Notes under the pieces: generated by a model
What the model was told of the DNA's origin: nothing
The model's input: the letters and a program-made list of their open reading frames with translations, nothing else
The model's database searches: none
Assembly (NCBI GenBank): GCA_964016885.1
Contig: OZ024761.1
Location: 18,228,001-18,292,000, forward strand
Reading direction: 5' to 3'
DNA from: Eledone cirrhosa
Taxonomy: Eukaryota
Length of the DNA: 64,000 nt
Shown here: one piece after another, positions 1,518-64,000 of the stretch
How positions within the stretch are numbered: the stretch's first letter is position 1
Layout: the number at the start of each line of letters is the position of its first letter
Made by a program: the position numbers and the translations under genes

Positions 1518-1890
1518 ATTACTTTCACTGTTCTTTCTAGCATAAAAAAGAAAAACCGGAAGGGTAGAAAATTGAAAAACTTCTTCTTTTTCCCTCCTCT
1601 AACTTTTCAAACAAAAGATAATTTTATGTAAACAAAAACGAAATTTTTGCCAAGAAAGATAACTCTTCTCTGACTTAAATCCAAAATTGGGATACAAAAT
1701 AAATTCCGCAATTTTTTGTATCCCAATTTTGGATTTAAGTCAGAGAAGAGTTATCTTTCTTGGCAAAAATTTCGTTTTTGTTTACATAAAATTATCTTTT
1801 GTTTGAAAAGTTAGAGGAGGGAAAAAGAAGAAGTTTTTCAATTTTCTCCACTTCCGGCTTTTTCTAGTGTATGCTAGAAATAGCAGTCAA

Positions 1891-1896
<6 letters not shown>
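1518..1896. repeat. Long palindrome (hairpin), unit 1
   Basis: Perfect ~134 bp inverted arms at 1566-1699 and 1714-1847 around a short asymmetric spacer (TAAATTCCGCAATT), imperfect outer arms, flanked by (TG)n/(TA)n. Confidence 0.97.
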
Positions 1897-2171: not shown

Positions 2172-2499
2172 TATATGAATATATCGACTAATAATATACA
2201 GTATAATTATACGAGTATGCATATACATTGCAATATATATATACACTAATATATATACATATTTACACATATATGTACATATATATATATATAGACACAC
2301 ATGTATATATATATATGCATGTATGTATATATGTATACATATATATACATATATATATATATGCATGTATGTATATACATATATATATATATACATAGAC
2401 CATGTGTATGTGTGTGTGTGTGTGTGTACATTCTTAGGTATATACATATATATTTATACACACATACAAATATATATATTTCTATGAGTCACGGTTTAT

Positions 2500-2810
2500 T
2501 ACACATTGGAGACAGAGTGAGAGATTTAGCTGTCATTTTTAGCAGATTTAGAAACTTCGCAAACGCTTTATTTTTTTCTTATTGCCGGTACTCTGAACAC
2601 GATTTGAAATGACTGGAGTGAGTTTATAAAAGGGTAAACTGAAATAGTTGCACCGGTAATATATTTAGTGTTACACCGGTATTTTTGAAACAATCTCTTT
2701 TCGCATTCGCTTGTAAGAGGTAACGTTTTCTATGCCGTCTCTGTTAGTGTAGAACTGTAGGTTGACTTGCTTGGTTTTTACAACTCTTTGTCAACATGCA
2801 TATTATTATT
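2500..2810 (-). pseudogene. Orphan ORF family A, copy A3 (degenerate), directly downstream of the RT remnant
   Basis: Inverted homologue of A2. Its counterpart at 37520-37832 reads [71 protein letters not shown]. Confidence 0.5.
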
Positions 2811-2941
2811 ATATACTTACAAACACACTTACATATATATTTATACACATATAGGATTTTACTAAGTTTTTATTCTTTCTAATGTGAAGAGATAGAAATA
2901 AGTTTAAACTAAAGTATAACGATATAACAGTATATAATAGT

Positions 2942-3493
2942 TTTCTCCACTTTATTGAGATGCAAACGTTTTAAAGAAAAAACATGACAGTATAAGAAAT
3001 ATTTACTATCATAATATATAATATTTCAGGTAGTATGGTCGTTTCTCTTATCTTCCATCTAGTTGTAGATTCTTCATATCCTCTCTAGCCATAATTATGT
3101 CGTCGACATATGCATAAGTTTGATTTCTTCTTGAATGAATTGCAAATCTTGAGGTAGCCTTCTTGGTACATTTATTAGCTTTAATTCGTGTTTACACTGC
3201 TTGTAATAATTCTTACGTTTTTTACTTTGGATGAAACATATATATGAAAACGTCTGACTTTAGTATACCTTTAAGTTTGATTTCAATAGAAAAATACTTA
3301 CTGAACATGTGTAACACAATTATAACTGGAGCTACTAAGTTTCTAGCCACTAGAAAATCTATTTGATAGAAGTTATTTCCTAGTTCTATGCACTGTCAAT
3401 ATCCCCTCTACTTTTTATATGCTTGTTTGTTAAAGAAACATTCTCTGATTTAGAAACCACGATCTTCTCGCACCATCGTTGTAGTAATTCTTG
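2942..3493 (-). pseudogene. Degenerate Ty3/Gypsy-type reverse transcriptase core, unit 1
   Basis: Motifs in canonical order across frameshifts: QELLQ..IVVSKSENVS..KVEG; SKYFSIEIK; LINVP; YAYVDDIIMA (YVDD codons 3099-3110); LNKVEK. Confidence 0.65.
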
Positions 3494-3579
3494 TTAGATG
3501 TTTTGTCTGGTCTATTGTCAATAAGTGGCCTTGTTTTCTGATTATTAATAAAGTTAAGTGGTCTACTGAATTGTCTAAA

Positions 3580-4033
3580 TTATTGCCTATTTATAAGTTT
3601 TGTTTAACTGCCGATAACTTTAAAATCTATTTCTTAGGTTGCTAAGGCCTACAAACCTTATATCAGTGTCCCTTCTTTTGACACTTTCTACGAGTGAATC
3701 CTTAAATTGACATTTTATTTTGGGTTGTACTGCCTTATCCCACCTATAACAGCTTGAAGCAGATATAGTAAAAACAGGTACTTGACTGTGGAGATTGATA
3801 TGAGTTAGATTGAACAAACCTCAACAATTATATTCAACATAACAGAAGAAAAAGGAATTATAAGTAAAGTGCAAAATTAACGTTTAAAGACAAGAAAAGT
3901 ATTTCTCTTTCTCTCTGGCAAAATAAATCAGCTGTTTTTAGACCTGGAGGAGGGGAGGATTGACTCAGTCAGGTTTAAATGCCCACATGATGGTAATTAC
4001 GGCACCCCTACAACAACAGTTAAATGTCTATAA
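3580..4033 (+). pseudogene. Orphan ORF family B, copy B1 (degenerate)
   Basis: Diverged direct repeat of 4493-4938; begins LPIYKFCLTADNFKIYFLGC; contains stops and frameshifts. Confidence 0.4.
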
Positions 4034-4119
4034 CCACCACGCATTTATGAGACTAAAAACCTTGATAGTGTATTTTTATTTTGGTACAAAAGTTTTTTAA
4101 ATAATTTCATCAGTTTTAA

Positions 4120-5412
4120 TTCAAGTAAGTCCAATATAATGTATTTAAACGAATCTAGAGATAGGATTTCAATATCTGTCAGAGCTTATGAAATAGTAAA
4201 ACAATTTTTTTTTTTTTTTCTTCATTTATGTCAAATACCATGAGTTGTTCTTTATTAAATAAATGCTAAAATAGATTTAGTTAGTATGACTCTGAAATGT
4301 GTTCAGAAACGGTAATGTTATGTTTTCCTTAGAGCCTGTCTGTCTTACAGTATGTTTACACACAATACATATACATAAATTAATTGTTTATTAGCTATAT
4401 TCTTCTGTTTACACTCCTCGTAATGATTCGAGCGGTTTTGTTTTTGTTTTTTCTTCAGGAGAGACGTAGATAGAAAAACGTTTGTGGCTTTAGTATTGCT
4501 TATTTTTAAGTTTTGTTTAATTGCCGATAAATTTGAAATATATTTGTTAGGTTTCTTAGAACTACAAATCTTTCTTATGACACGTACTACGGAATAAATT
4601 CTTAGCTGGATACTTTACTTTGTGATTACTTTCCTCCCAAAGCCATAACAGCTTGAATCAGATGTAGCAAAAACTTGTGAAGACTGACATGAGTTATGTT
4701 GAATATAAGTGTAGACGTAAAATATTTTTGTTTATTCAATCTAAAGGGAAGGAGAAAGAATTTTAAGTCAAGTGCAAAATTAACGTTTAAAGGCATAAGA
4801 AAGGTATCTCGCTTTCTCTCCTGTAACATAAATAGGCTGTTTTTAGACCAGGAGGATGGGAGGATTGACTCAGTCAGATTTAAATGTACACATGACGGTA
4901 AATACGACAGCCCTACAACAACAGTTAAGTGTCTATAACAACCATGCATTTAAGAGACTGAAAACCTTACGAATTTGTTTATATTTTGGTACATGAAAAC
5001 AAAATTTAAAAACAAATTATATATTTAATTTCATGTAAGTCAAATACAATGTATTTAAATGAATCTACAGATGGAGTTGCAATATCTGCCAGGACTTTGA
5101 AATAGTGAAATATATAAAAATGTTTAATTAAAACTACTTTTCAAAGGAATAATAAAGATATATACACACACACACACATCTCTAGTGGAGATATTTCTGA
5201 GATTGGAAACCCTATCGATGTATGTATTTTGTCACTGTAAAGTTATCAAAAAATTATTATTATATATACATGTTTGCGTTTTTGACGTAAGTAAATTATG
5301 AGGTGTTCGATACCTGCCAGAGCTTATGAAATAGTAAAAGAATATTTTTCTCTTTTCAATTATGTCAAACATCGTATGTAGTTCTTTATTAAAGAAATGC
5401 TAAAATAGATTT
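4120..5412 (+). repeat. Three internal direct repeats of the CTG(C/T)CAG(A)G..TGAAATAGT.AAA module (~4120-4280, ~5030-5110, ~5310-5412)
   Basis: Directly visible. The first and third copies also share TTCTTTATTAAA.AAATGCTAAAATAGATTTA. Confidence 0.85.
4493..4938 (+). pseudogene. Orphan ORF family B, copy B2 (its 80-aa 3' ORF is open in all five full units)
   Basis: LLIFKFCLIADKFEIYLLG... then ORF 4696-4938 ...KLTFKGIRKVSRFLSCNINRLFLDQEDGRIDSVRFKCTHDGKYDSPTTTVKCL; recurs at 10978, 17201, 23373 and 29594. Confidence 0.4.
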
Positions 5413-5788
5413 AAATATATGAAATTTGCACAGTAGAATTACGGCCGCTTGGCGGGCGTCTGGTAAAGTGGTGGTAGTGTAGGTTCGAGCGGAGGGGGAA
5501 CTAGAAGGGTGGCTTCGAGATGATCGTGGCCCCGGGTATCCCAGAAGATAGAGACCAATATTTAAAATAAAAAAAATAAAAATGTTTTATATTTAAGATA
5601 AAGTAGAAGATCGAAACCCTATCTCCAAATCGATACACACTGAATTGATGCATAGATACACCACAACTATCCACACGGCTACCTACAGACCAACAAATAC
5701 GGAGTGAAAATAAACACATTTAAAGCTATTTTATTGTTAGACTAAAAATAAGTTTATATATGTAAATATTCAAAAGAAAATCACTTAA

Positions 5789-5872
5789 GTCTTTATAGTC
5801 TAGTGGTAAGACATAGGACTGGGGAATGCCGTAGTTGGATTTCGAATCAACTTAAAACATTAACTTTTTTTA
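5789..5872 (+). ncRNA. tRNA-like (pseudo-tRNA / Pol III) cassette in each unit
   Basis: A-box TAGTCTAGTGG within a perfect D-stem GTCT/AGAC, B-box-like ATTTCGAATC within a GTTG..CAAC stem, partial acceptor pairing and a downstream T-run. The anticodon arm pairs poorly. Confidence 0.45.
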
Positions 5873-7534
5873 TCCTCACACTGTAAGGAATTTGCTTGAT
5901 TTGAACACGTAGTCATACCATTTGAAGCTTTATTTTTCTCTTTCTAGTCGTAACACAGTCAGCATATAAATAAACGTGATTCACTTCAACACGTTGCCAT
6001 ACCATTTAAAACTTTATTTGGAGATGAGACAAAGACACATAAATACACCAAGTAGTAAACCCTTGATTGAACTTACTATGAAGATGAAGAATGTCTGTTA
6101 ATATCAAAGTGACGTTAAATTTAGGTGTCACTTTCATTGTTTTTAATTTACAGAAACACCTTAATATAATACAATGTACAAGATATATATATTAGAAGGA
6201 ATATTTTTTATTTTCTTGTTTCGTCAAACCTTGCGTTTATTCTACACACACACACGTCGAAACACTTGCTTAAGGTGGCTTTCTTAGAGATAATGAGAAG
6301 TGTTGGCTTGGTGGAGATTGATACAACTTTGGGTGATGTTACGAGGAGAGGCAAGGCTATGGAGAGTGTCTTAGTGGAAGAGATGACATCAGAGCAGTAA
6401 CCTCCAAAGAGATGAAATTAGTGACTGAGATGCTATCATTGCATAGTTAAGAATATATATAACAAACATATACTATAAATTTAACAAGTCAAACTACAGT
6501 TATACTCTAACACGGAAGACAAATAAAACTTTACCTCTCTCATGCACGTCGTATCCAGTGTGTTGTTATAAGAAAACCGGTGAAACACTAAATATGCCAC
6601 CAGTGTAGCGATTTTATACTCTCTCTCTGCTTCATCGTACCACCCAGTAACATGAAACTGTGTTCAAATCCCTGGGAGGTAGAATTTCGTCGCTTTAAAA
6701 TAAACACACTGGGGTCAGTTTGAATATTGATTTCATGTGAAAAATATATACATATTATGATTGTACTCCGAACTATCAATATTGAAACAATTTTAATGTG
6801 CCAATAAAATTTATATATATCTATACAGCAACAGTGTTTTCGATCTTTCTTACTTTTTTTATTCACACTCTACAGTCACTTTAACTCTGTAATAAAACCC
6901 AACACGAGACGAACGTTAACTGCAGTTACCCACGAAATTAACGCACACACAAATGAATATATATATATACTACTAAAATGTATGTAAAATTAAAAAATAA
7001 ATACTTAAATTCAATGTATGTATAATTACACATACAATACGTTTTGTTGTAAAACCCTAAATAATAATTTAAGAAATGATGTTAATCTCTTTGTACAGAG
7101 ATAAACATTAATTTATGTGTGTGCGTATATACACCATTTAAGACAGCGAAAAAACCAGTACCTCCTTCGAAGAATGCCAAATAGTTTATGCCTCAGGTAT
7201 ACCGGTGTAACACTAATTAAGTTACCGGTGTAGATATTTCAGTTGAACCGTGCTTCAACAAACTACCCGGTAATTTGAAATCGAGTTTAGAGTGAGGGGG
7301 TGTAAAACAGAATTCTGTTTGGAAAATAGTAAATTCTAAACCTGCTAGAAACAGCAGCCAAATGTCGCACTTTGGGTGCGACTCGTCTTACCTCTTCTAA
7401 TATATATATGTGTGTGTGTGTGTGTGTAGATTCACAGGTCGCGTCGGAGAGAAACCACAATAAATACAATGTACTCAATAGATTGGCACAGTATATATGT
7501 GTGTGTGTGTACATATAAATATGTGTGTGTGTAT

Positions 7535-9227: not shown

Positions 9228-9779
9228 TTTCTCCACTTTATTGAGATGCAAACGTTTTAAAGAAAAAACATGACAGTATAAGAAATATTTACTATCATAA
9301 TATATAATATTTCAGGTAGTATGGTCGTTTCTCTTATCTTCCATCTAGTTGTAGATTCTTCATATCCTCTCTAGCCATAATTATGTCGTCGACATATGCA
9401 TAAGTTTGATTTCTTCTTGAATGAATTGCAAATCTTGAGGTAGCCTTCTTGGTACATTTATTAGCTTTAATTCGTGTTTACACTGCTTGTAATAATTCTT
9501 ACGTTTTTTACTTTGGATGAAACATATATATGAAAACGTCTGACTTTAGTATACCTTTAAGTTTGATTTCAATAGAAAAATACTTACTGAACATGTGTAA
9601 CACAATTATAACTGGAGCTACTAAGTTTCTAGCCACTAGAAAATCTATTTGATAGAAGTTATTTCCTAGTTCTATGCACTGTCAATATCCCCTCTACTTT
9701 TTATATGCTTGTTTGTTAAAGAAACATTCTCTGATTTAGAAACCACGATCTTCTCGCACCATCGTTGTAGTAATTCTTG
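9228..9779 (-). pseudogene. Degenerate Gypsy-type RT core, unit 2
   Basis: Copy of 2942-3493; YVDD at 9385-9396. Confidence 0.65.
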
Positions 9780-12700
9780 TTAGATGTTTTGTCTGGTCTA
9801 TTGTCAATAAGTGGCCTTGTTTTCTGATTATTAATAAAGTTAAGTGGTCTACTGAATTGTCTAAATTATTGCCTATTTATAAGTTTTGTTTAACTGCCGA
9901 TAACTTTAAAATCTATTTCTTAGGTTGCTAAGGCCTACAAACCTTATATCAGTGTCCCTTCTTTTGACACTTTCTACGAGTGAATCCTTAAATTGACATT
10001 TTATTTTGGGTTGTACTGCCTTATCCCACCTATAACAGCTTGAAGCAGATATAGTAAAAACAGGTACTTGACTGTGGAGATTAATATGAGTTAGATTGAA
10101 CAAACCTCAACAATTATATTCAACATTACAGAAGAAAAAGGAATTATAAGTAAAGTGCAAAATTAACGTTTAAAGACAAAAGTATTTCTCTTTCTCTCTG
10201 GCAAAATAAATCAGCTGTTTTTAGACCTGGAGGAGGGGAGGATTGACTCAGTCAGGTTTAAGTGCCCATATGACGGTAATTACGGCACCCCTACAACAAC
10301 AGTTAAATGTCTATAACCACCACGCATTTATGAGACTAAAAACCTTGATAGTGTATTTTTATTTTGGTACAAAAGTTTTTTAAATAATTTCATCAGTTTT
10401 AAATTCAAGTAAGTCCAATATAATGTATTTAAACGAATCTAGAGATAGGATTTCAATATCTGCCAGAGCTTATGAAATAGTAAAACAATTTTTTTTTTTC
10501 AATTATGTCAAATACCAAAAGTTGTTCTTTATTAAAGAAATGCTAAAATAGATTTAGTTAGTATGACTCTGAAATGTGTTCATAAACGGTAATATGTTTT
10601 CCTGAGAGCCTGTCTGTCTTACAGTATGTTTACACACAATACATACATGCATATACATAAATTAATTGTTTATTAGCTATATTCATCTGTTTACACTCCT
10701 CGTAATAATTCGAGCGGTTTTGTTTTTGTTTTTTCTTCAGGAGAGACGTAGATAGAAAAACGTTTGTGTCTTTAGTATTGCTTATTTTTAAGTTTTGTTT
10801 AATTGCCGATAAATTTGAAATATATTTGTTAGGTTTCTTAGAACTACAAATCTTTCTTATGACACTTACTACGGAATAAATTCTTAGCTGGATACTTTAC
10901 TTTGTGATTACTTTCCTCCCAAAGCCATAACAGCTTGAATGAGATGTAGCAAAAACTTGTGAAGACTGACATGAGTTATGTTGAATATAAGTGTAGACAT
11001 AAAATATTTTTGTTTATTCAATCTAAAGGGAAGGCAAAAGAATTATAAGTCAAGTGCAAAATTAACGTTTAAAGGTATAAGAAAGGTATCTCGCTTTCTC
11101 TCCTGTAAAATAAATAGGCTGTTTTTAGTCCAGGAGGATGGGAGGATTGACTCAGTCAGATTTAAATGCACACATGACGGTAAATACGACAGTCCTACAA
11201 CAACAGTTAAGTGTCTATAACAACCATGCATTTAAGAGACTGAAAACCTTACTAATTTGTTTTTATTTTGGTACATGAAAACAAAATTTAAAAACAAATT
11301 ATATATTTAATTTCATGTAAGTCAAATACAATGTATTTAAATGAATCTACAGATGGAGTTGCAATATCTGCCAGGACTTTGGAAATAGTGAAATATATAA
11401 AAATGTTTAATTAAAACTACTTTTCAAAGGAATAATAAAGATATATACACACACACACATCTCTAGTGGAGATATTTCTGAGATTGGAAACCCTATCGAT
11501 GTATGTATTTTGTCACTATAAAGTTATCAAAAAATTATTATTATATATACATGTTTGCGTTTTTGACGTAAGTAAAATATGAGGTGTTCGATACCTGCCA
11601 GAGCTTATGAAATAGTAAAAGAATATTTTTCTCTTTTCAATTATGTCAAACATCGTATGTAGTTCTTTATTAAAGAAATGCTAAAATAGATTTAAATATA
11701 TGAAATTTGCACAGTATAATTACGGCCGCTTGGCGGGCGTCTGGTAAAGTGGTGGTAGTGTAGGTTCGAGCGGAGGGGGAACTAGAAGGGTGGCTTCGAG
11801 ATGATCGTGGCCCCGGGTATCCCAGAAGATAGAGACCAATATTTAAAATTAAAAAAATAAAAATGTTTTATATTTAAGATAAAGTAGAAGATCGAAACCC
11901 TATCTCCAAATCTATACACACTCAATTAATGCATAGATACACCACAACTACCCACACGACCACCTACAGACCAACAATTACGGAGTGAAAATAAACACAT
12001 TTAAAGCTATTTTATTGTTAGACTAAAAATAAGTTTATATATGTAAATATTCAAAAGAAAATCACTTCAGTCTTTATAGTCTAGTGGTAAAACATAGGAC
12101 TGGGGAATGCCGTGGTTGGATTTCGAATCAACTTAAAACATTAACTTTTTTTAACCTCACACTGTAAGGAATTTGCTTGATTTGAACACGTCGTCATACC
12201 ATTTAAAGCTTTATTTTTCTCTTTCTAGTCGTAACACAGTCAGCATATAAATAAAGGTGATTCACTTCAACACGTTGCCATACCATTTAAAACTTTATTT
12301 GGAGATGAGACAAAGACACATAAATACACCAAGTAGTAAACCCTTGATTGAACTTACTATGAAGATGAAGAATGTCTGTTAATATCAAAGTGACGTTAAA
12401 TTTAGGTGTCACTTTCATTGTTTTTAATTTACAGAAACACCTTAATATAATACAATGTACAAGATATATATATTAGAAGGAATATTTTTTATTTTCTTGT
12501 TCCGTCAAACTTTGCGTTTATTCTACACACACACACGTCGAAACACTTGCTTAAGGTGGCTTTCTTAGAAATAATGAGAAGTGTTGGCTTGGTGGAGATT
12601 GATACAACTTTGGGTGATGTTACGAGGAGAGGCAAGGCTATGGAGAGTGTCTTAGTGGAAGAGATGACATCAGAGCAGTAACCTCCAAAGAGATGAAATT

Positions 12701-15443: not shown

Positions 15444-15999
15444 TTTCTCCACTTTATTGAGATGCAAACGTTTTAAAGAAAAAAAATGACAGTATAAGAA
15501 ATATTTACTATCATAACATATAATATTTCAGGTAGTATGGTCGTTTCTCTTGTCTTCCACCTAGTTGTAGATTCTTCATGTCCTCTCTAGCCATAATTAT
15601 GTCGTTGACATATGCATAAGTTTGATTTCTTCTTGAATGAATTGCAAATCTTGAGGTAGCCTTCTTGGTACATTTATTAGCTTTAATTCGTGTTTACACT
15701 GCTTGTAATAATTCTTACGTTTTTTACTTTGGATGAAACATATATATGAAAACGTCTGTGACTTTAGTATACCTTTAAGTTTGATTTCAATAGAAAAATA
15801 CTTACTGAACATGTGTAACGCAATTATAACTGGAGCTACTAAGTTCCTAGCCACTAGAAAATCTATTTGATAGAAGTTATTTCCTAGTTCTATGCACTGT
15901 CAATATCCCCTCTACTTTTTATATGCTTGTGTTTGTTAAAGAAACATTCTCTGATTTAGAAACCACGATCTTCTCGCACCATCGTTGTAGTAATTCTTG
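15444..15999 (-). pseudogene. Degenerate Gypsy-type RT core, unit 3 (YVND variant)
   Basis: ORF 15597-15854 gives FSKYFSIEIKLKG...KLINVP in one frame; catalytic codons read TAT GTC AAC GAC. Confidence 0.6.
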
Positions 16000-18900
16000 T
16001 TAAATGTTTCGTCTGGTCTATTGTCAATAAGTGGCCTTGTTTTCTGATTATTAATAAAGTTAAGTGGTCTACTGAATTGTCTAAATTATTGCCTATTTAT
16101 AAGTTTTGTTTAACTGCCGATAACTTTAAAATCTATTTCTTAGGTTGCTTAGGCCTACAAACCTTATATCAGTGTCCCTTCTTTTGACACTTTCTACGAG
16201 TGAATCCTTAAATTGACATTTTATTTTGGGTTGTACTGCCTTATCCCACCTATAACAGCTTGAAGCAGATATAGTAAAACCAGGTCCTTGACTGTGGAGA
16301 CTAATATAAGTTAGATTGAACAAACCTCAACAATTATATTCAACATAAGAGAAGAAAAAGGAATTATAAGTAAAGTGCAAAATTAACGTTTAAAGACAAG
16401 AAAAGTATTTCTCTTTCTCTCTGGCAAAATAAATCGGCTGCTTTTAGACCTAGAGGAGGGGAGGATTGACTCAGTCAGGTTTAAATGCCCACATGACGGT
16501 AATTCCGGCACCCCTACAACAACAGTTAAGTGTCTATAACCACCACGCATTTATGAGACTAAAAACCTTGCTAGTGTATTTTTATTTTGGTACAAAAGTT
16601 TAAATAATTTCATCAGTTTTAAATTCAAGTAAGTCCAATATAATGTATTTAAACGAATCTATAGATAGGATTTCAATATCTGCCAGAGCTTATGAAATAG
16701 TAAAACAATTTTTTTTTTTCAATTATATCAAATACCATAAGTTGTTCTTTATTAAAGAAATGCTAAAATAGATTTAGTTAGTATGACTCTGAAATGTGTT
16801 CATAAACGGTAATGTTATGTTTTCCTGAGAGCCTGTCTGTCTTACAGTATGTTTACACACAATACATACATGCATATACATAAATTAATTGTTTATTAGC
16901 TATATTCATCTGTTTACACTCCTCGTAATAATTCGAGCGGTTTTGTTTTTGTTTTTTCTTCAGGAGAGACGTAGATAGAAAAACGTTTGTGGCTTTAGTA
17001 TTGCTTATTTTTAAGTTTTGTTTAATTGCCGATAAATTTGAAATATATTTGTTAGGTTTCTTAGAACTACAAATCTTTCTTATGACACGTACTACGGAAT
17101 AAATTCTTAGCTGGATACTTTACTTTGTGATTACTTTCCTCCCAAAGCCATAACAGCTTGAATCAGATGTAGCAAAAACTTGTGAAGACTGACATGAGTT
17201 ATGTTGAATATAAGTGTAGACGTAAAATATTTTTGTTTATTCAATCTAAAGGGAAGGAAAAAGAATTTTAAGTCAAGTGCAAAATTAACGTTTAAAGGCA
17301 TAAGAAAGGTATCTCGCTTTCTCTCCTGTAAAATAAATAGGCTGTTTTTAGACCAGGAGGATGGGAGGATTGACTCAGTCAGATTTAAATGTACATATGA
17401 CGGTAAATACGACAGCCCTACAAGAACAGTTAAGTGTACATGAAAACAAAATTTAAAAACAAATTATATATTTAATTTCATGTAAGTCAAATACAATGTA
17501 TTTAAATGAATCTACAGATGGAGTTGCAATATCTGCCAGGACTTTGGAAATAGTGAAATATATAAAAATGTTTAATTAAAACTACTTTTCAAAGGAATAA
17601 TAAAGAGATATACACACACACATCTCTAGTGGAGATATTTCTGAGATTGGAAACCCTATCGATGTATGTATTTTGTCACTGTAAAGTTATCAAAAAATTA
17701 TTATTATATATACATGTTTGCGTTTTTGACGTAAGTAAAATATGAGGTGTTCGATACCTGCCAGAGCTTATGAAATAGTAAAAGAATATTTTTCTCTTTT
17801 CAATTATGTCAAACATCGTATGTAGTTCTTTATTAAAGAAATGCTAAAATAGATTTAAATATATGAAATTTGCACAGTAGAATTACGGCCGCTTGGCGGG
17901 CGTCTGGTAAAGTGGTGGTAGTGTAGGTTCGAGCGGAGGGGGAACTAGAAGGGTGGCTTCGAGATGATCGTGGCCCCGGGTATCCCAGAAGATAGAGACC
18001 AATATTTAAAATTAAAAAAATAAAAATGTTTTATATTTAAGATAAAGTAGAAGATCGAAACCCTATCTCCAAATTTATACACACTGAATTGATGCATAGA
18101 TACACCACAACTACCCACACGGCCACCTACAGACCAACAAATACGGAGTGAAAATAAACACATTTAAAGCTATTTTATTGTTAGACTAAAAATAAGTTTA
18201 TATATGTAAATATTCAAAAGAAAACCATTTAAGTCTTTATAGTCTAGTGGTAAGACATAGGACTGGGGAATGCCGTGGTTGGATTTCGAATCAACTTAAA
18301 ACATTAACTTTTTTTAACCTCACACTGTAAGGAATTTGCTTGATTTGAACACGTCGTCATACCATTTAAAGCTTTATTTTTCTCTTTCTAGTCGTAACAC
18401 AGTCAGCATATAAATAAAGGTGATTCACTTCAACACGTTGCCATACCATTTAAAACTTTATTTGGAGATGAGACAAAGACACATAAATACACCAAGTAGT
18501 AAACCCTTGATTGAACTTACTATGAAGATGAAGAATGTCTGTTAATATCAAAGTGACGTTAAATTTAGGTGTCACTTTCATTGTTTTTAATTTACAGAAA
18601 CACCTTAATATAATACAATGTACAAGATATATATATTAGAAGGAATATTTTTTATTTTCTTGTTCCGTCAAACTTTGCGTTTATTCTACACACACACACG
18701 TCGAAACACTTGCTTAAGGTGGCTTTCTTAGAAATAATGAGAAGTGTTGGCTTGGTGGAGATTGATACAACTTTGGGTGATGTTACGAGGAGAGGCAAGG
18801 CTATGGAGAGTGTCTTAGTGGAAGAGATGACATCAGAGCAGTAACCTCCAAAGAGATGAAATTAGTGACTGAGATGCTATCATTGCATAGTTAAGAATAT

Positions 18901-21613: not shown

Positions 21614-22171
21614 GTTTTCTCCACTTTATTGAGATGCAAACGTTTTAAAGAAAAAAAATGACAGTATAAGAAATATTTACTATCATAACATATAATATTT
21701 CAGGTAGTATGGTCGTTTCTCTTGTCTTCCACCTAGTTGTAGATTCTTCATGTCCTCTCTAGCCATAATTATGTCGTTGACATATGCATAAGTTTGATTT
21801 CTTCTTGAATGAATTGCAAATCTTGAGGTAGCCTTCTTGGTACATTTATTAGCTTTAATTCGTGTTTACACTGCTTGTAATAATTCTTACGTTTTTTACT
21901 TTGGATGAAACATATATATGAAAACGTCTGTGACTTTAGTATACCTTTAAGTTTGATTTCAATAGAAAAATACTTACTGAACATGTGTAACGCAATTATA
22001 ACTGGAGCTACTAAGTTCCTAGCCACTAGAAAATCTATTTGATAGAAGTTATTTCCTAGTTCTATGCACTGTCAATATCCCCTCTACTTTTTATATGCTT
22101 GTGTTTGTTAAAGAAACATTCTCTGATTTAGAAACCACGATCTTCTCGCACCATCGTTGTAGTAATTCTTG
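21614..22171 (-). pseudogene. Degenerate Gypsy-type RT core, unit 4 (YVND variant)
   Basis: Essentially identical to the unit 3 copy; ORF 21769-22026. Confidence 0.6.
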
Positions 22172-25100
22172 TTAAATGTTTCGTCTGGTCTATTGTCAAT
22201 AAGTGGCCTTGTTTTCTGATTATTAATAAAGTTAAGTGGTCTACTGAATTGTCTAAATTATTGCCTATTTATAAGTTTTGTTTAACTGCCGATAACTTTA
22301 AAATCTATTTCTTAGGTTGCTTAGGCCTACAAACCTTATATCAGTGTCCCTTCTTTTGACACTTTCTACGAGTGAATCCTTAAATTGACATTTTATTTTG
22401 GGTTGTACTGCCTTATCCCACCTATAACAGCTTGAAGCAGATATAGTAAAACCAGGTCCTTGACTGTGGAGACTAATATAAGTTAGATTGAACAAACCTC
22501 AACAATTATATTCAACATAAGAGAAGAAAAAGGAATTATAAGTAAAGTGCAAAATTAACGTTTAAAGACAAGAAAAGTATTTCTCTTTCTCTCTGGCAAA
22601 ATAAATCGGCTGCTTTTAGACCTAGAGGAGGGGAGGATTGACTCAGTCAGGTTTAAATGCCCACATGACGGTAATTCCGGCACCCCTACAACAACAGTTA
22701 AGTGTCTATAACCACCACGCATTTATGAGACTAAAAACCTTGCTAGTGTATTTTTATTTTGGTACAAAAGTTTAAATAATTTCATCAGTTTTAAATTCAA
22801 GTAAGTCCAATATAATGTATTTAAACGAATCTATAGATAGGATTTCAATATCTGCCAGAGCTTATGAAATAGTAAAACAATTTTTTTTTTTCAATTATAT
22901 CAAATACCATAAGTTGTTCTTTATTAAAGAAATGCTAAAATAGATTTAGTTAGTATGACTCTGAAATGTGTTCATAAACGGTAATGTTATGTTTTCCTGA
23001 GAGCCTGTCTGTCTTACAGTATGTTTACACACAATACATACATGCATATACATAAATTAATTGTTTATTAGCTATATTCATCTGTTTACACTCCTCGTAA
23101 TAATTCGAGCGGTTTTGTTTTTGTTTTTTCTTCAGGAGAGACGTAGATAGAAAAACGTTTGTGGCTTTAGTATTGCTTATTTTTAAGTTTTGTTTAATTG
23201 CCGATAAATTTGAAATATATTTGTTAGGTTTCTTAGAACTACAAATCTTTCTTATGACACGTACTACGGAATAAATTCTTAGCTGGATACTTTACTTTGT
23301 GATTACTTTCCTCCCAAAGCCATAACAGCTTGAATCAGATGTAGCAAAAACTTGTGAAGACTGACATGAGTTATGTTGAATATAAGTGTAGACGTAAAAT
23401 ATTTTTGTTTATTCAATCTAAAGGGAAGGAAAAAGAATTTTAAGTCAAGTGCAAAATTAACGTTTAAAGGCATAAGAAAGGTATCTCGCTTTCTCTCCTG
23501 TAAAATAAATAGGCTGTTTTTAGACCAGGAGGATGGGAGGATTGACTCAGTCAGATTTAAATGTACATATGACGGTAAATACGACAGCCCTACAAGAATA
23601 GTTAAGTGTACATGAAAACAAAATTTAAAAACAAATTATATATTTAATTTCATGTAAGTCAAATACAATGTATTTAAATGAATCTACAGATGGAGTTGCA
23701 ATATCTGCCAGGACTTTGGAAATAGTGAAATATATAAAAATGTTTAATTAAAACTACTTTTCAAAGGAATAATAAAGAGATATACACACACACATCTCTA
23801 GTGGAGATATTTCTGAGATTGGAAACCCTATCGATGTATGTATTTTGTCACTGTAAAGTTATCAAAAAATTATTATTATATATACATGTTTGCGTTTTTG
23901 ACGTAAGTAAAATATGAGGTGTTCGATACCTGCCAGAGCTTATGAAATAGTAAAAGAATATTTTTCTCTTTTCAATTATGTCAAACATCGTATGTAGTTC
24001 TTTATTAAAGAAATGCTAAAATAGATTTAAATATATGAAATTTGCACAGTAGAATTACGGCCGCTTGGCGGGCGTCTGGTAAAGTGGTGGTAGTGTAGGT
24101 TCGAGCGGAGGGGGAACTAGAAGGGTGGCTTCGAGATGATCGTGGCCCCGGGTATCCCAGAAGATAGAGACCAATATTTAAAATTAAAAAAATAAAAATG
24201 TTTTATATTTAAGATAAAGTAGAAGATCGAAACCCTATCTCCAAATTTATACACACTGAATTGATGCATAGATACACCACAACTACCCACACGGCCACCT
24301 ACAGACCAACAAATACGGAGTGAAAATAAACACATTTAAAGCTATTTTATTGTTAGACTAAAAATAAGTTTATATATGTAAATATTCAAAAGAAAACCAT
24401 TTAAGTCTTTATAGTCTAGTGGTAAGACATAGGACTGGGGAATGCCGTGGTTGGATTTCGAATCAACTTAAAACATTAACTTTTTTTAACCTCACACTGT
24501 AAGGAATTTGCTTGATTTGAACACGTCGTCATACCATTTAAAGCTTTATTTTTCTCTTTCTAGTCGTAACACAGTCAGCATATAAATAAAGGTGATTCAC
24601 TTCAACACGTTGCCATACCATTTAAAACTTTATTTGGAGATGAGACAAAGACACATAAATACACCAAGTAGTAAACCCTTGATTGAACTTACTATGAAGA
24701 TGAAGAATGTCTGTTAATATCAAAGTGACGTTAAATTTAGGTGTCACTTTCATTGTTTTTAATTTACAGAAACACCTTAATATAATACAATGTACAAGAT
24801 ATATATATTAGAAGGAATATTTTTTATTTTCTTGTTCCGTCAAACTTTGCGTTTATTCTACACACACACACGTCGAAACACTTGCTTAAGGTGGCTTTCT
24901 TAGAAATAATGAGAAGTGTTGGCTTGGTGGAGATTGATACAACTTTGGGTGATGTTACGAGGAGAGGCAAGGCTATGGAGAGTGTCTTAGTGGAAGAGAT
25001 GACATCAGAGCAGTAACCTCCAAAGAGATGAAATTAGTGACTGAGATGCTATCATTGCATAGTTAAGAATATATATAACAAACATATACTATAAATTTAA

Positions 25101-27837: not shown

Positions 27838-28391
27838 TTTCTCCATTTTATTGAGATGCAAACGTTTTAAAGAAAAAACATGACAGTATAAGAAATATTT
27901 ACTATCATAATATATAATATTTCAGGTAGTATGGTCGTTTCTCTTATCTTCCATCTAGTTGTAGATTCTTCATATCCTCTCTAGCCATAATTATGTCGTC
28001 GACATATGCATAAGTTTGATTTCTTCTTGAATGAATTGCAAATCTTGAGGTAGCCTTCTTGGTACATTTATTAGCTTTAATTCGTGTTTACACTGCTTGT
28101 AATAATTCTTACGTTTTTTACTTTGGATGAAACATATATATGAAAACGTCTGACTTTAGTATACCTTTAAGTTTGATTTCAATAGAAAAATACTTACTGA
28201 ACATGTGTAACACAATTATAACTGGAGCTACTAAGTTCCTAGCCACTAGAAAATCTATTTGATAGAAGTTATTTCCTAGTTCTATGCACTGTCAATATCC
28301 CCTCTACTTTTTATATGCTTGTGTTTGTTAAAGAAACATTCTCTGATTTAGAAACCACGATCTTCTCGCACCATCGTTGTAGTAATTCTTG
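27838..28391 (-). pseudogene. Degenerate Gypsy-type RT core, unit 5
   Basis: Copy of 2942-3493; YVDD at 27995-28006. Confidence 0.65.
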
Positions 28392-31300
28392 TTAAATGTT
28401 TTGTCTGGTCTATTGTCACTAAGTGGCCTTGTTTTCTGATTATTAATAAAGTTAAGTGGTCTACTGAATTGTCTAAATTATTGCCTATTTATAAGTTTTG
28501 TTTAACTGCCGATAACTTTAAAATCTATTTCTTAGGTTGCTAAGGCCTACAAACCTTATATCAGTGTCCCTTCTTTTGACACTTTCTACGAGTGAATCCT
28601 TAATTTGACATTTTATTTTGGGTTGTACTGCCTTATCCCACCTATAACAGCTTGAAGCAGATATAGTAAAAACAGGTACTTGACTGTGGAGATTAATATG
28701 AGTTAGATTGAACAAACCTCAACAATTATATTCAACATTACAGAAGAAAAAGGAATTATAAGTAAAGTGCAAAATTAACGTTTAAAGACAAAAGTATTTC
28801 TCTTTCTCTCTGGCAAAATAAATCAGCTGTTTTTAGACCTGGAGGAGGGGAGGATTGACTCAGTCAGGTTTAAGTGCCCATATGACGGTAATTACGGCAC
28901 CCCTACAACAACAGTTAAATGTCTATAACCACCACGCATTTATGAGACTAAAAACCTTGATAGTGTATTTTTATTTTGGTACAAAAGTTTTTTAAATAAT
29001 TTCATCAGTTTTAAATTCAAGTAAGTCCAATATAATGTATTTAAACGAATCGAGAGATAGGATTTCAATATCTGCCAGAGCTTATGAAATAGTAAAACAA
29101 TTTTTTTGTTTTCAATTATGTCAAATACCAAAAGTTGTTCTTTATTAAAGAAATGCTAAAATAGATTTAGTTAGTATGACTCTGAAATGTGTTCATAAAC
29201 GGTAATGATATGTTTTCCTGAGAGCCTGTCTGTCTTACAGTATGTTTACACACAATACATACATGCATATACATAAATTAATTGTTTATTAGCTATATTC
29301 ATCTGTTTACACTCCTCGTAATAATTCGAGCGGTTTTGTTTTTGTTTTTTCTTCAGGAGAGACGTAGATAGAAAAACGTTTGTGGCTTTAGTATTGCTTA
29401 TTTTTAAGTTTTGTTTAATTGCCGATAAATTTGAAATATATTTGTTAGGTTTCTTAGAACTACAAATCTTTCTTATGACACTTACTACGGAATAAATTCT
29501 TAGCTGGATACTTTACTTTGTGATTACTTTCCTCCCAAAGCCATAACAGCTTGAATGAGATGTAGCAAAAACTTGTGAAGACTGACATGAGTTATGTTGA
29601 ATATAAGTGTAGACATAAAATATTTTTGTTTATTCAATCTAAAGGGAAGGCAAAAGAATTATAAGTCAAGTGCAAAATTAACGTTTAAAGGTATAAGAAA
29701 GGTATCTCGCTTTCTCTCCTGTAAAATAAATAGGCTGTTTTTAGTCCAGGAGGATGGGAGGATTGACTCAGTCAGATTTAAATGCACACATGACGGTAAA
29801 TACGACAGTCCTACAACAACAGTTAAGTGTCTATAACAACCATGCATTTAAGAGACTGAAAACCTTACTAATTTGTTTTTATTTTGGTACATGAAAACAA
29901 AATTTAAAAACAAATTATATATTTAATTTCCTGTAAGTCAAATACAATGTATTTAAATGAATCTACAGATGGAGTTGCAATATCTGCCAGGACTTTGGAA
30001 ATAGTGAAATATATAAAAATATTTAATTAAAACTACTTTTCAAAGGAATAATAAAGATATATACACACACACACATCTCTAGAGGAGATATTTCTGAGAT
30101 TGGAAACCCTATCGATGTATGTATTTTGTCACTGAAAAGTTATCAAAAAATTATTATTATATATACATGTTTGTGTTTTTGACGTAAGTAAAACGAATCT
30201 ATATACGAGGTTTTCGATACCTGCCAGAGCTTATGAAATAGTAAAAGAATATTTTTATTTTTCAATTATGTCAAACATCGTATGTGGTTCTTTATTAAAG
30301 AAATGCTAAAATAGATTTAAATATATGAAATTTGCACAGTAGAATTACGGCCGCTTGGCGGGCGTCTGGTAAAGTGGTGGTAGTGTAGGTTCGAGCGGAG
30401 GGGAAACTAAAAAGGTGGCTCAGAGATGATCGTGGCCCCGGGTAGCTCAGAAGATAGAGACCAATCTCTTAAATTAAAAAAATAAAAATGTTTTAAACAT
30501 AAGATAAAGTAGAAGATCGAAACCCTATCTCCACAACTACCCACACGACCACCTACAGACCAACAATTACGGAGTGAAAATAAACACATTTAAAGCTATT
30601 TTATTGTTAGACTAAAAATAAGTTTATATATGTAAATATTCAAAAGAAAATCACTTCAGTCTTTATAGTCTAGTGGTAAGACATAGGACTGGGGAATGCC
30701 TTGTTTGGATTTCGAATCAACTTAAAACATTAATTTTTTTTATCCTCACACTGTAAGGAATTTGTTTGATTTGAACACGTAGTCATACCATTTACAGCTT
30801 TATTTTTCTCTTTCTAGTGGTAACACAGTCAGCATATAAGTAAACGTGATTCACTTCAACACGTTGCCATACCATTTAAAACTTTATTTGGAGATGAGAC
30901 AAAGACACATAAATACACCAAGTAGTAAACCCTTGATTTAACTTACTATGAAGATGAAGAATGTCTTAATATCAAAGTGACGTTAAATTTAGGGGCCACT
31001 TTCATCGTTTTTAATTTACAGAAACTCCTTAATATAACACAATGTACAAGATATATATATATCAGAAGGAATATTTTTTATTTTCTTGTTCCGTCAAACC
31101 TTGCGTTTATTCTACACACACACACACACGTCGAAACACTTGCTTGAGGTGGCTTTCTTAGACATAATGAGAAGTGTTGGCTTTGTGGAGATTGATACAA
31201 CTTTGGGTGATGTTACGAGGAGGGGCAAGGCTATAGAGAGTGTCTGTCTTAGTGGAAGAGATGATATCAGAGCAGTAACCACCAAAGAGATGAAATTAGT

Positions 31301-32652: not shown

Positions 32653-32702
<50 letters not shown>

Positions 32703-32712
32703 ATACATATAT

Positions 32713-33088
32713 ATTACTTTCACTGTTATTTCTAGCATACACTAGAAAAAGCCGGAAGTGGAGAAAATTGAAAAACATCTTCTTTTTCCCCCCTTTAACT
32801 TTTCAAACAAAAGGAAATTTTATGTAAACAAAAACGAAATTTTTGCCAAGAAAGATAACTCTTCTCTGACTTAAATCCAAAATTGGGATACAAAAAATTG
32901 CGGATTTTTTGTATCCCAATTTTGCATTTAAGTCAGAGAAGAGTTATCTTTCTTGGCAAAAATTTCGTTTTTGTTTACATAAAATTCTCTTTTGTTTGAA
33001 AAGTTAAAGGGGGGAAAAAGAAGATGTTTTTCAATTTTCTCCCCTTCCGGTTTTTCTTTTTTATGCTAGAAAGAACAGTGAAAGTAAT
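32713..33088. repeat. Long palindrome in flipped orientation; centre of the array-terminal inversion
   Basis: Spacer reads AATTGCGGATT (reverse-complement form of AATTCCGCAATT), and the outer arms are swapped relative to units 1-5. Confidence 0.93.
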
Positions 33089-33098
33089 AAATATGTAT

Positions 33099-33144
<46 letters not shown>

Positions 33145-35751
33145 TAAACCCCTACATTCGCGGAATATTCCTTAGAATATATATATAGAAATAGACACAC
33201 AGATATATATATATACACACATATATATCTATATATGTGTGTATGTATACATATGTTTATCTATATATATAAGTATTTATATGTATATATACATTTATAC
33301 ATATATATATATACATACACACACACACACATATTTATATGTACACACACACACGCATATATATATATACTGTGCCAATCTATTGAGTACATTGTATTTA
33401 TTGTGGTTTCTCTCCGACGCAACCCGTGAATCTACACACACACACATATATATATATTAGAAGAGGTAAGACGAGTCGCACCTCGTACTCAAAGTACGAC
33501 ATTTGGCTGCTATTTCTAGCAGGTTTAGAATTTACTATTTTCCAAACAGAATTCTGTTTTACACCCCTCACTCTGAACTCGATTTCAAATTACCGGGTAG
33601 TTTGTTGAAGCAGGGTTCAACTGAAATATCTACACCGGTAACTTAATTAGTGTTACACCATTATCTCTGAGTCATAAACTGTTTGACATTCTTTGAAGGA
33701 GGTACTGGTTTTTTAGCTGTCTTAAATGGACTATATACGCACACAATGCATATACATAAATTAATGTTTTTCTCTACAAAAAGATTGACATCATTTCTTA
33801 AATCATTATTTAGTGTTTTACAACAAAACATATTGTATGTGTAGTTATACATAGAATTTAAGTATTTATTTTTTTATTTTACATACACTTTAGTAGTATA
33901 TATATATATTCATTTGTGTGTGCGTTAATTTCGTGGGTAACTGCAGTTAACGTTCGTCTCGTGTTGGGTTTTATTCCAGAGTTAAAGCGACTGAAGAGTG
34001 TGAATAAAAAAAGTAAGAAAGATCGAAAACACTGTTGCTGTATATATATATATAAATTTTATTGGCACATTAGAATTGTTTCAATATTGATAGTTCGGAG
34101 TACAATCATAATATGTATATATTTTTCACATGAAATCAATATTCAAACTGACCCCAGTGTTTTTATTATAAAGCGACGTAATTCTACCTCCCAGGGATTT
34201 GAACACAGTTTCATGTTACTGGGTGGTACGATGAAGTAGAGAGAGTATAAAACCGCTACACTGGTGGCATATTTAGTGTTTCACCGGTTTTCTTATAACA
34301 ACACACTGGATACGATGTGCATGATAGAGGTAAAGTTTTATTTGTCTTCCGTGTTAGAGTATAACTGTAGTTTGACTTGTTAAATTTATAGAACATGTTT
34401 GTTATATATATTCTTAACATAGCTAAGATTCCATCTCCATTACTGATTTCATCTGTTCGGAGCTTACTGCTCTCGTGTCTTCTAAGACACTCTCGACACC
34501 TTTGCATCTCCTTCTTTCGTCACAAACCCGACACTTCTCATTATATCCAGTTTTTGTGGATAATGTCGGCTTCATAGAACTCCTTCTTTACGTCATTCTA
34601 TAAAATGTAGGTTTCCAACAGTTTAAGTACATGGAACTCCGTTTAGGTCTTTTTATAAAAAAAAGGAAGCCCCCACTCCTAAGAAAGTGTTTCGGCCACA
34701 CGTGTGTCGAGTAAACGCAAGGTTTGACAAAACAATAAAATAAAAAATAATTCTTTCTGACAATTATATCTTGTACATTGTATTATATTAAGAGGCTTCT
34801 GTACATTAAAAACAATAAAAATGAACCCCTAGATTTAAGGAAACGTTGATATTAACAGACATACTCCATCTTCATAGTAAGTTAAATCAAGGGTTTACTA
34901 CTTAGTGCAGTTATGTGTCTTTGTCTTATCTCCAAATAAAGTTTCAAATGGTATGAATATGTGTTGAAATGAAACAAGTTTATTTATTTCCTGACAGTCT
35001 TAGCTCTAGGGAGAGAGAAAATAAAGTTTTAAATGGTATGACTACGTGGTGAAATGCAACAAGTTTATTTCCCGATTGTCCTAGGTCTAGAGAGAGAGAA
35101 AATAGAGTTTTAAATTGTATGACTACGTGTTCAAAAGAAGCAAGTTCCTCTCCGGCCTGATAATTAAAATAAAAATCAAATTATAAGTCGATTCGAAAGC
35201 CAACCAGAGCATTCCCTAGTTCTATGTCTTACCACTGGACTACAAAGACCAAGACAATTCTTTGGTCAATATTTATATATATAAACTTATTTTCAGTCTA
35301 ATAGTAAAATAGCTTTAAGTATGTTAATTTTCAATGTGTTTGTCGAGCTGTAGGTGGCCGTGTGGGTAGTTGTGGTGTATCTATGCATAATTTATGTATG
35401 TTGGAGGTAGGGTTTCGATCTCCTTTGTTTAAAATAATGTTCTCTACCTTTTGGGCCACCTTTTTAGTTCCCTCTTCGCTACCTAGGTACACAACCACTA
35501 CCTACGATACCACACGACCACCAAGCGGTTGTAATTCTATTGTGCAAATTTAATATATTTTATAATTTCTTTCATAAAGAACCACATACTGTGTTTGACA
35601 TATTTGAAAAAGAAAAAAAAAAAAACATTTTACTATTTCATAACCAAGCATTTAAACGTGGCTGAGACAATGTCCTTCCCCTGGTCTGAAAACAGCCGCT
35701 TTATTTTTACCCAGGGAGAAAGAAAGATACTTTTATTATTTCTTTAAACGT

Positions 35752-35944
35752 CGGGCGGTGGATTGGCAGTATCGGTAGAGGGTCGGACGCCATGCTTTCC
35801 AGCATAGTCACGTCCCTTTACGATCTGAGTTCAAATCCCGCCGAGGTTGACTTTGCCTTTCATCCTTACGGGGGTCGATAAAATAAAGTACCAGTAATGT
35901 TCTGGTTAATTGCTGGCCTTGTGCCTAAAGTAGAAACAATTATT
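35752..35944 (+). mobile_element. tRNA-derived SINE family 1 with target-site duplication
   Basis: A/B boxes (TGGCAGTATCGG, GAGTTCAAATCC), core GCCTTTCATCCTTACGGGGGTCGATAAAATAAAGTACCAG, and a flanking duplication of about ATTATTTCTTTAAACGT; inserted into the family B copy. Confidence 0.88.
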
Positions 35945-36254
35945 TCTTTAAACGTTAATTTTGTACTTGACTTATAATACCGGTTTCTTCTCTTTAGATT
36001 GAATAAAGAACATTTTACGTCTACAATTATATTCAACATAACTCATGTTAGTCTTCACAGTCACGGACCTGTTTTTACTATATCTGCTTATGGGTGGGGA
36101 GGGGCAGTACAACCCCAAAATAAGTCCATTTAAGGATTCACTCGGTAGAAAGTGTCAAAAGAAGGAACACTGGTATAAGGTTTTTAGGTCTAAGCAGCCT
36201 AACAAATAGATTTCAAAGTTATCGGCAACTAAACAAAACTTTAAAATAAGCAAT

Positions 36255-36572
36255 AATGGTTTCTTATATAGGCACAAGGCGAGCAATTTGGTAGGGGGGG
36301 GGGGACGATTAAATCGACCACAGTGCGTGACTGGTACTTTATTTTATCCAGCACGTAAGGATGAAAGACAAAGTTAACCTCGGCGGGATTTGAGCTTAAA
36401 TCATAAAGGGTCATAACTCTATGCTGCAAAGCATGGCGTCCGACCCTCTACCAATACTGACAAAAGCAATAAATTGTTTCTATTTTTGGCATAAGGCCAG
36501 TAATTATCTCAGTGCATTACTGGTACCTTATTTTATCGACCCCGTAAGGATGAAAGGTAATGTTAACCTCAA
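36255..36572 (-). mobile_element. SINE family 1, one near-full and one partial copy
   Basis: Two reverse-complement cores CTGGTAC.TT.ATTTTATC...GGATGAAAG. Confidence 0.8.
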
Positions 36573-36717
36573 TAATGAAGTCAATTCTGACCAAGATTAG
36601 ACAACTCTCACATCCATATTAGCCTCTGTTAATTCAGGAGACCACTTAATTTTATTTATTAATAATTACAAAACAAGGCCACTTATTGTCACTAGAACAG
36701 TGGAAACATTCATTTAA

Positions 36718-37258
36718 CAGGAATTGCTACAGCGATGGTGCGAAAAGATCAGGGTTTCTAAACTAAATCAGAGAATGTTTCTTTAACAAACACAAGCATA
36801 TAAAAAGTAGAAGGGATATTGACAGTGCATAGAACTAGGAAAAAACTTCTATCAAATAGATTTTCTAGTGGCTTGGAACTTAGTAGCTCCAGTTATAATT
36901 GTGTTACACATGTTCAGTAAGTATATTTTTATTGATATCAAACTTAAAGGTATACTAAAGCCTCATACGTTTTTATATATATGTTTCAGCTTAAGTTTTA
37001 AAAAAACGTACGAATTATTACAAGCAGTGTAAACACGAATTAAAGATAATAAATGTACCAAGAAGGCGACCTCAAGATTTTCACTTCATTTAAGATGAAA
37101 TCAAACTTATGCATATGTCGACGACATCATTATGGCTGGAAAGAACATTCACTGAACATCACGAATCTACTAGAGGCGGAAGACAAGAGAAACGACCATC
37201 CTACCTGAAATATTATGTTATGATAAAACGTTTGAATCTCAATAAAGTGGAGAAAACT
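36718..37258 (+). pseudogene. Degenerate Gypsy-type RT core, inverted copy
   Basis: QELLQRWCEK..; KVEGILTVHRTRK..MFSKYIFIDIK; IINVP; YAYVDDIIMAGKN (YVDD 37114-37125) / FTEHHE; KRLNLNKVEK. Confidence 0.68.
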
Positions 37259-37339
37259 GTTGTATGTTGTTGTTATATCATTATACTTTAGCTTGATTTA
37301 TTTCTATCTCTTCCCATAAGAAATAATACAACTTAATAG

Positions 37340-37468
37340 TTGTTTCTACTTTTGGCACAAGGCCAGCAATTATCCCAGTGCATTACTGGTACTTTATTTT
37401 ATCGACCCCGTAAGGATGAAAGGCAAAGTTAACCTCGGCGGGATTTGAACTCAGATCGCAAAGAGACG
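37340..37468 (-). mobile_element. SINE family 1, 5'-truncated
   Basis: Reverse-complement core and B box. Confidence 0.82.
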
Positions 37469-57968: not shown

Positions 57969-58004
57969 ACAATATTCATATATATATATATATATAAAAC
58001 AATA

Positions 58005-63992: not shown

Positions 63993-64000
63993 TATATATC

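Follow-up and report, generated by a model that had tools for sequence, protein, structure and literature searches.

INTRODUCTION

Molluscs and cephalopods are reported to be rich in Gypsy elements (PMC6238403, PMC8967140), with the C-clade as the most abundant among mollusc Gypsy elements (PMC6238403). Satellites derived from LTR retrotransposons are described in a legume, with monomers that derive from short tandem arrays within the elements (PMC7004042). Two further papers report that inverted repeats promote amplification with inversions in yeast (PMC6007334) and that oyster Helentrons carry tandem repeats (PMC7492417).

Here we analyse a window of 64,000 nucleotides from Eledone cirrhosa (contig OZ024761.1, positions 18,228,001 to 18,292,000), for which a preliminary description had proposed a cryptic Gypsy-type reverse transcriptase (RT) in every unit of a repeat array. 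We put at roughly 85% the probability that the sequence is instead a damaged gag-protease-RT fragment from a Gypsy LTR element, interrupted by stops in each of its copies and likely already dead when it came to be passively copied within a 6.2-kb repeat. The locus resembles the legume satellites in being a tandem array made of LTR-retrotransposon sequence, but the monomer here is a 6.2-kb composite with decayed coding sequence, microsatellites and a palindrome. It also resembles the yeast amplicons in having an inverted repeat at the junction of direct and inverted copies and a segment flipped between the arms, although those amplicons arose on engineered chromosomes and the mechanism here is one that we infer.

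MATERIALS AND METHODS

We wrote a frameshift-aware profile-to-DNA aligner for this analysis and calibrated it on dinucleotide shuffles. The clade for the profile was chosen by the likeness of the residues around the YVDD motif. Two pattern scans for such a clade returned phage or unrelated loci or nothing, and a third fetched two decayed members, L195 (CBDHEM010000012.1) and L196 (CBDHDT010000099.1). Both are filed as bacterial MAG contigs, yet hold decayed eukaryote-type Gypsy gag-pol sequence, which is likely host contamination of the assemblies. L196 brought 120 polyproteins (the best 120 of 677 matches), of which 119 (P0002-P0120) were used in the profile; P0001, longer and more distant, was excluded. 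The hhalign comparison used 40 of the 120 polyproteins, and motif spacing was measured in the 43 of the 119 proteins in which patterns located both the first RT helix and motif C.

The P0002-P0120 proteins form a single-ORF clade of Ty3/Gypsy elements (Metaviridae), ∼1200 aa long, with YLDN, YLDD or YVDN as motif C. The named matches of the clade come from corals, a nematode and cartilaginous fish, and we take it to be probably the Mag lineage, or C-clade, of Gypsy.

RESULTS

A tandem array of 6.2-kb units joined to an older inverted copy

The units of the array (GC ∼0.31) lie head-to-tail with starts at 1, 6287, 12568, 18731, 24903 and 31161, the last unit being partial, in a window that is AT-rich, full of microsatellites and scattered with interspersed repeats. 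Each unit is a composite in which a palindrome and microsatellites are combined with two copies of the decayed gag-protease sequence and three of the tail (Table 1). The inverted copy that had been reported exists, in that 2860-3572 matches 37338-36631 at 82%; its identity to the array ranges from 76 to 97% per 100 bases, and it is broken up by interspersed repeats, one insertion of which (∼36260-36630) splits its relic.

Table 1. Features of the array, the inverted copy and the Gypsy relics (window coordinates)
Feature	Coordinates	Strand	Remarks
Tandem array, ∼6.2-kb units	1-32717	+	units 0.02-2.3% apart
Near-perfect palindrome, one per unit	1520-1892		arms 1551-1699 and 1714-1862, 98% (149 bp)
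Tail beyond RT stub	2488-2830	-	two more diverged inverted copies, ∼162-400 and 844-1088
Probable RT motif C stub, unit 1	3069-3122	-	YVDD 3099-3110; 23.6 bits; joined to helix across a likely deletion
Protease-RT linker and first RT helix, unit 1	3113-3266	-	holds LINVP; colinear alignment; 17.0 bits alone
Decayed retropepsin-type aspartic protease, unit 1	3267-3549	-	22.3 bits, 0/500 shuffles
Decayed Gypsy Gag C-terminal zinc-knuckle pair (CCHC-type), unit 1	3630-3790	-	profile 37.1 bits
Second gag/protease-end fragment within unit	4387-5110	-	more diverged, differently deleted; DNA self-match
Relic, unit 2	9355-10076	-	ends set by offset from unit 1; hmmsearch domains
Relic, unit 3 (YVND)	15571-16296	-	50.4 bits, 0/200 shuffles
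Relic, unit 4 (YVND)	21743-22468	-	ends set by offset from unit 3; hmmsearch domains
Relic, unit 5	27965-28688	-	46.1 bits, 0/200 shuffles; low end by offset from unit 1
Older inverted copy of one unit	32717-37833	-	joined to array via palindrome, centre ∼32900
Relic, inverted copy	36090-37213	+	knuckles 36090-36236, protease 36658-36963, motif C stub 37099-37213

Before unit position 3797, not one substitution separates units 1 and 2, which are identical across the relic stretch, and a single substitution separates units 3 and 4 over 6161 aligned bases. Such closeness might be seen if the array were partly an artefact of assembly. We consider such an artefact unlikely, since the remaining pairs of units are 1.7-2.3% apart, with variants in a mosaic pattern that is consistent with unequal exchange or conversion, and since contigs of a public run cover 30 of 30 bins of the stretch that was compared. 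It would, moreover, alter the copy number and not the nature of the relic.

In this one public run, 966 contigs match positions 2480-6290 of the unit at 80-100% identity (119 at 99% or above, 165 at 95-99%, 333 at 90-95% and 349 under 90%), and thus the unit belongs to a multi-copy family, the count itself giving no copy number. Some contig joints skip one of two internal 0.9-kb repeats; together with the presence of contigs in all identity bands, these joints indicate that the family has many variants. Three other public runs (X5, X7 and X8), with 0, 16 and 97 contigs as short pieces, were excluded as evidence. Searches of open-access text brought up no description of the 6.2-kb repeat.

The relic aligns with the Gag knuckles and protease of a Gypsy clade

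The YVDD context alone picked the clade, and the clade then predicted a gag and protease match upstream. Indeed, a colinear alignment runs on the minus strand from 3790 to 3113 across profile columns 196-433, scoring 45.4 bits in unit 1, 50.4 bits in unit 3 and 46.1 bits in unit 5, compared to a shuffle background of ∼16 ± 2 bits with maxima of 22-26 (0 of 200 shuffles as high). These columns comprise the Gag zinc knuckles, the aspartic protease, the linker and the start of RT, as assigned by Pfam on two relatives, and the protease columns agree with Pfam Asp_protease_2 and gag-asp_proteas at residues 280-367 of intact relatives. Taken alone, the Gag knuckles (3790-3630) score 37.1 bits (0 of 500 shuffles as high, shuffle maximum 18.8), the protease 22.3 bits in unit 1 and 26.3 bits in one frame of the inverted copy (0 of 500 shuffles), and the linker 17.0 bits (2 of 500 shuffles as high). 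When 36 relatives were aligned singly, the median was 34.9 bits against a reversed-sequence maximum of 19.0.

Similar results are obtained with standard tools. A six-frame hmmsearch covering the whole window listed 10 domains at conditional E < 0.5, and 9 of them sit on the relic, at or just upstream of 2942-3493, with matches on the expected strand in each of the six copies. With hhalign, the inverted copy matches at E = 6.4e-6 for the knuckle, 0.0028 for the protease (104 columns) and 0.0035 for the YVDD region, and the knuckle, protease and motif C come in polyprotein order, although the hhalign probability is just 11% for the protease and 9% for motif C. Control regions reach 19.9, 23.5 and 23.9 bits, which is close to what is obtained for the protease (22-26 bits), for motif C (20-26 bits) and for the second knuckle (24 bits, the knuckle region of the fragment at 4387-5110), and thus these parts count through their order and position and not by score alone. 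In a scan of the whole window, triplet microsatellites scored higher than the relic, reaching 82 bits (81 in the reversed control), and a spot near 61490 reaches 35.6 bits.

The relic resembles the clade in its domain order (Gag knuckles, protease, RT), in the spacing from knuckle to helix and in its motif C residues. It differs from the clade in that it has no open frame, that ∼128 RT codons have likely gone, that RNase H, integrase, an LTR pair and a primer-binding site (PBS) all went undetected, and that it lies in tandem and inverted copies and not as a provirus-like insertion. The assignment to the Ty3/Gypsy superfamily in the preliminary description is therefore correct. The peptide strings that it quoted are all present on the minus strand of 2942-3493, in different frames, but their interpretation changes: ELLQ...KVEG and SKYFSIEIK, read as RT motifs, both align within the aspartic protease (3549-3267), and LINVP falls in the pre-RT linker. 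Likewise, accompanying LTR-element genes had been described as absent; this holds for RNase H and integrase, which are undetected, but not for the Gag knuckles at 3790-3630, nor for a protease that lies inside the very stretch described as RT.

Searches with broader targets found little. Pfam returned 0 families (E up to 10) for the six frames of the stretch and the inverted copy, and no credible family (best E = 0.018) for a further 21 frames from the unit and the inverted copy. With phmmer, the PDB gave 0 matches, and the YVDD frame found 0 among 1.84 billion representative proteins at E up to 0.001. Frames of the window used in word-indexed searches for homologues yielded 0 of 624 and 0 of 69 candidates, and neither these nor the phmmer search returned a close intact relative. 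Generic Gypsy gag-protease columns were without signal (33 of 200 and 53 of 200 shuffles as high), and profile alignment found no gag capsid match in the unit. These null results do not imply that the motifs are chance, because the clade-matched profile recovered the fossil at z ∼15. An empty RVT_1 search had been proposed as the sign of chance matches; the search is indeed empty when run frame by frame, because most of the RT is absent, and still the stretch 3790-3069 is, on the evidence of these alignments, non-random, Gypsy-derived DNA.

A likely deletion joins the first RT helix to a probable motif C

The distribution of the motif among the copies is as reported, with YVDD in units 1, 2 and 5 and in the inverted copy (3099-3110, 9385-9396, 27995-28006 and 37114-37125) and YVND in units 3 and 4 (15601-15612 and 21773-21784). 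The distance from the first RT helix to this motif is 29 nt in all six copies, while motif C lies 138 codons (∼414 nt) past the helix in 40 of the 43 intact relatives measured. Thus, ∼385 nt (∼128 codons of RT, including motifs A and B) have likely been deleted, and since the 29-nt spacing is the same in 6 of 6 copies, the deletion would be older than the split between the array and the inverted copy. In intact relatives the two ends of the deleted gap resemble each other, a likeness that would favour a homology-guided slip as a plausible route.

Among the downstream columns (434-1110), the ∼190 nt after the helix fit motif C best, at 23.6, 20.4 and 25.9 bits (0, 1 and 0 of 1000 shuffles as high), a test that is optimistic, the clade having been chosen for its motif C likeness. 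This same choice of clade could favour another reading of the same gag-protease relic, in which YVDD is a chance look-alike from the decayed first RT helix and homology ends near 3040. The colinear alignment does extend to profile column 458 with one extra frameshift and, with long deletions disallowed, the aligner reads YVDD through as the first RT helix and gains ∼5 bits. However, the colinear continuation fits poorly (13.5 and 12.7 bits, with 45 and 137 of 1000 shuffles as high) compared to the motif C placement in the same test (23.6 and 25.9 bits, 0 of 1000), and an independent generic Gypsy profile also places the spot as motif C. We therefore regard a chance look-alike as decidedly unlikely, and YVDD is probably a true remnant of RT motif C, as had been suggested.

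A complete RT domain, with motifs A, B and C in their spacing, was not found in the relic, which holds a first helix and a motif C stub. When the stretch was forced end to end onto two RT-core profiles, z lay between -0.4 and 2.0, compared to 3.8-4.5 for an unrelated LINE RT of the window that served as control, and thus the statement that motif spacing matches an RT palm fails. Generic Gypsy RT profiles (19 and 37 sequences) find the YVDD spot and nothing else, at 20-26 bits, a score that 0-21 of 200 shuffles equal depending on the settings, and hhalign with generic Gypsy RT gives a probability of 14% at best. The first reading was misled because the protease end sits about where motif A would normally be: by coincidence, its distance to YVDD is close to the normal distance from motif A to motif C. 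The caulimoviral alternative also finds no footing, in that badnavirus-like Caulimoviridae RTs have YxDD and the general RT fold in common with the relic, but a profile of badnavirus-like loci has no match here (z ≤ 1.4).

The relic copies are decayed and without codon signal

Every frame of the 2942-3493 stretch carries several stops and all six copies carry stops; over the protease-linker alignment, each of the array units has 3-4 frameshifts and 1-3 stops, and the inverted copy has 4 stops. Substitutions between the array and the inverted copy, and between the two gag copies, are without three-base periodicity (P = 0.25-0.98), and the synonymous to non-synonymous counts per frame (4/22, 10/17 and 5/23) give no clear synonymous excess. 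The comparison of array and inverted copies that had been proposed as a test of selection therefore yields none of the open frame and purifying selection expected of an active or domesticated RT gene. Given the shared deletion, stops and frameshifts and the lack of codon bias, the relic was likely dead before its amplification by the 6.2-kb repeat, and a protein product from it is not expected.

One patch is less diverged than its surroundings: 26 of 400 sites differ between 3100-3500 and 36700-37120, compared to a divergence of 13-15% for the flanks, again without codon bias. A conversion tract may be the plain explanation, with constraint as the alternative. This roughly twofold conservation and the retention of YVDD in 4 of the 6 copies are what might be said for a stand-alone, cryptic but complete RT palm, free of other LTR-element genes and perhaps driving the array. 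We consider it extremely improbable, in view of an end-to-end RT-core fit at chance level, upstream motifs that belong to the protease and linker, several stops per frame and no codon signal.

The remainder of the element is undetected

Downstream of the stub, RNase H and integrase (columns 621-1110) are undetected, at 15.6-18.7 bits with 11-104 of 200 shuffles as high. Self-comparison of the unit showed no flanking direct repeats of an LTR pair, a comparison that a single LTR per unit would escape, and a crude motif scan of the unit gave no convincing PBS or polypurine tract (PPT). The orphan ORF that had been placed after the RT does not appear, the longest stop-free frames between 2490 and 2940 being 53 aa; nearby frames of at least 100 aa run through an AT/GT microsatellite.

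The three copies of the tail are ∼30-37% apart, and nothing significant was found on comparing the tail to the polyprotein profile. Its identification as gag or integrase is unsupported (E = 0.15; 8-393 of 500 shuffles as high).

The palindrome and a proposed origin of the composite unit

The palindrome of the unit has a DNA fold of -179 kcal/mol (z = -34). The array joins the inverted copy at the palindrome (32700-33100), and there the palindrome centre is flipped. Within one copy, both arms carry the same copy-specific variants, which points to arm-to-arm repair, while the flipped centre points to flip-flop inversion. The region around the palindrome (1410-2230) also resembles a repeat at 63650-64000, with 71% identity over 1951-2176 and a 27-bp inverted match, and therefore the unit includes another interspersed element.

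We propose that the unit and array arose as follows. The alignment indicates that the DNA at 3790-3069 derives from a Gypsy element that bore a double zinc knuckle. A single ∼385-nt deletion, plausibly by homology-guided slip, would then have taken out motifs A and B and brought the first RT helix up against the sequence that precedes motif C, and the sequence from the RT palm end through RNase H and integrase would have been lost or replaced. The fragment was duplicated locally to give 4387-5110, as DNA matches show (3572-4195 versus 4485-5104, 74%; 3171-3283 versus 4387-4518, 67%). At a point whose order we infer, the fragment would have come to adjoin microsatellites and the 370-bp palindrome, and the composite would have become the repeat unit. 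Unequal exchange or rolling-circle replication could have amplified it head-to-tail, and exchange between palindrome arms may have joined the array to the older inverted copy.

The carrier of the relic might be of another kind, and this is compatible with the Gypsy relic reading: the 6.2-kb unit could itself be a DNA transposon of a non-autonomous kind, either Helitron/Helentron-like or foldback, which took up a Gypsy scrap and is moved by an enzyme in trans. Head-to-tail copies, a palindrome, microsatellites and captured fragments are described for Helitron-type elements of oyster (PMC7492417), and here the family is multi-copy with many length variants and a second hairpin, at 49315-49502, has a 12-nt end in common with the unit's palindrome. 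However, the arms here are ∼150-180 bp and perfect, compared to the 11-12 bp subTIRs in the oyster elements (PMC7492417), and 21 frames translated from the unit and the inverted copy gave no transposase or helicase match. We hold such a carrier to be unlikely.

A more speculative idea, which we judge highly improbable, is that the palindrome-bearing unit is self-amplifying and host-tolerated: the hairpin would flip, homogenise its arms and seed inverted junctions, and read-through across the array and the inverted copy would give long double-stranded RNA from gag-protease that feeds small-RNA silencing. If true, this would explain a protease patch twice as conserved as its flanks.

Decayed Gypsy fragments in tandem repeats are a known sort of genomic debris, and the relic itself matters little. 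It carries two lessons, namely that a deletion can fake motif spacing by bringing protease residues to where RT motifs are expected, and that a null result in Pfam and 1.8 billion proteins does not make a fossil chance. More unusual is the palindrome, for its flipped centre and the homogenisation between its arms, which, if found genome-wide, would matter for the growth of large satellites.

Other features of the window

Unrelated near-perfect hairpins lie beside AT microsatellites at 41669-41981, 49315-49502, 52376-52607 and 46992-47057, with arms of 154, 94, 104 and 31 bp, respectively, and are possibly a family of foldback miniature elements. Among the Rfam matches listed (150 of 288), there were only sub-threshold microsatellite and hairpin matches, and no tRNA genes were found. 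The LINE RT control came from a 329-aa open frame at 56986-57975 (minus strand), with RVT_1 at E = 2.5e-18 and a LINE-like motif context. A GC-richer stretch at 43300-46500 is probably another decayed retroelement; it includes a frame at 44014-44442 (minus strand) with a weak PHD-finger match (E = 0.0005). A 200-base N gap (53739-53938) falls within an AT microsatellite, and short tandem arrays occur at 34934-35146 (81 bp × 2.6, in the inverted copy) and at 43056-43163 (36 bp × 3).
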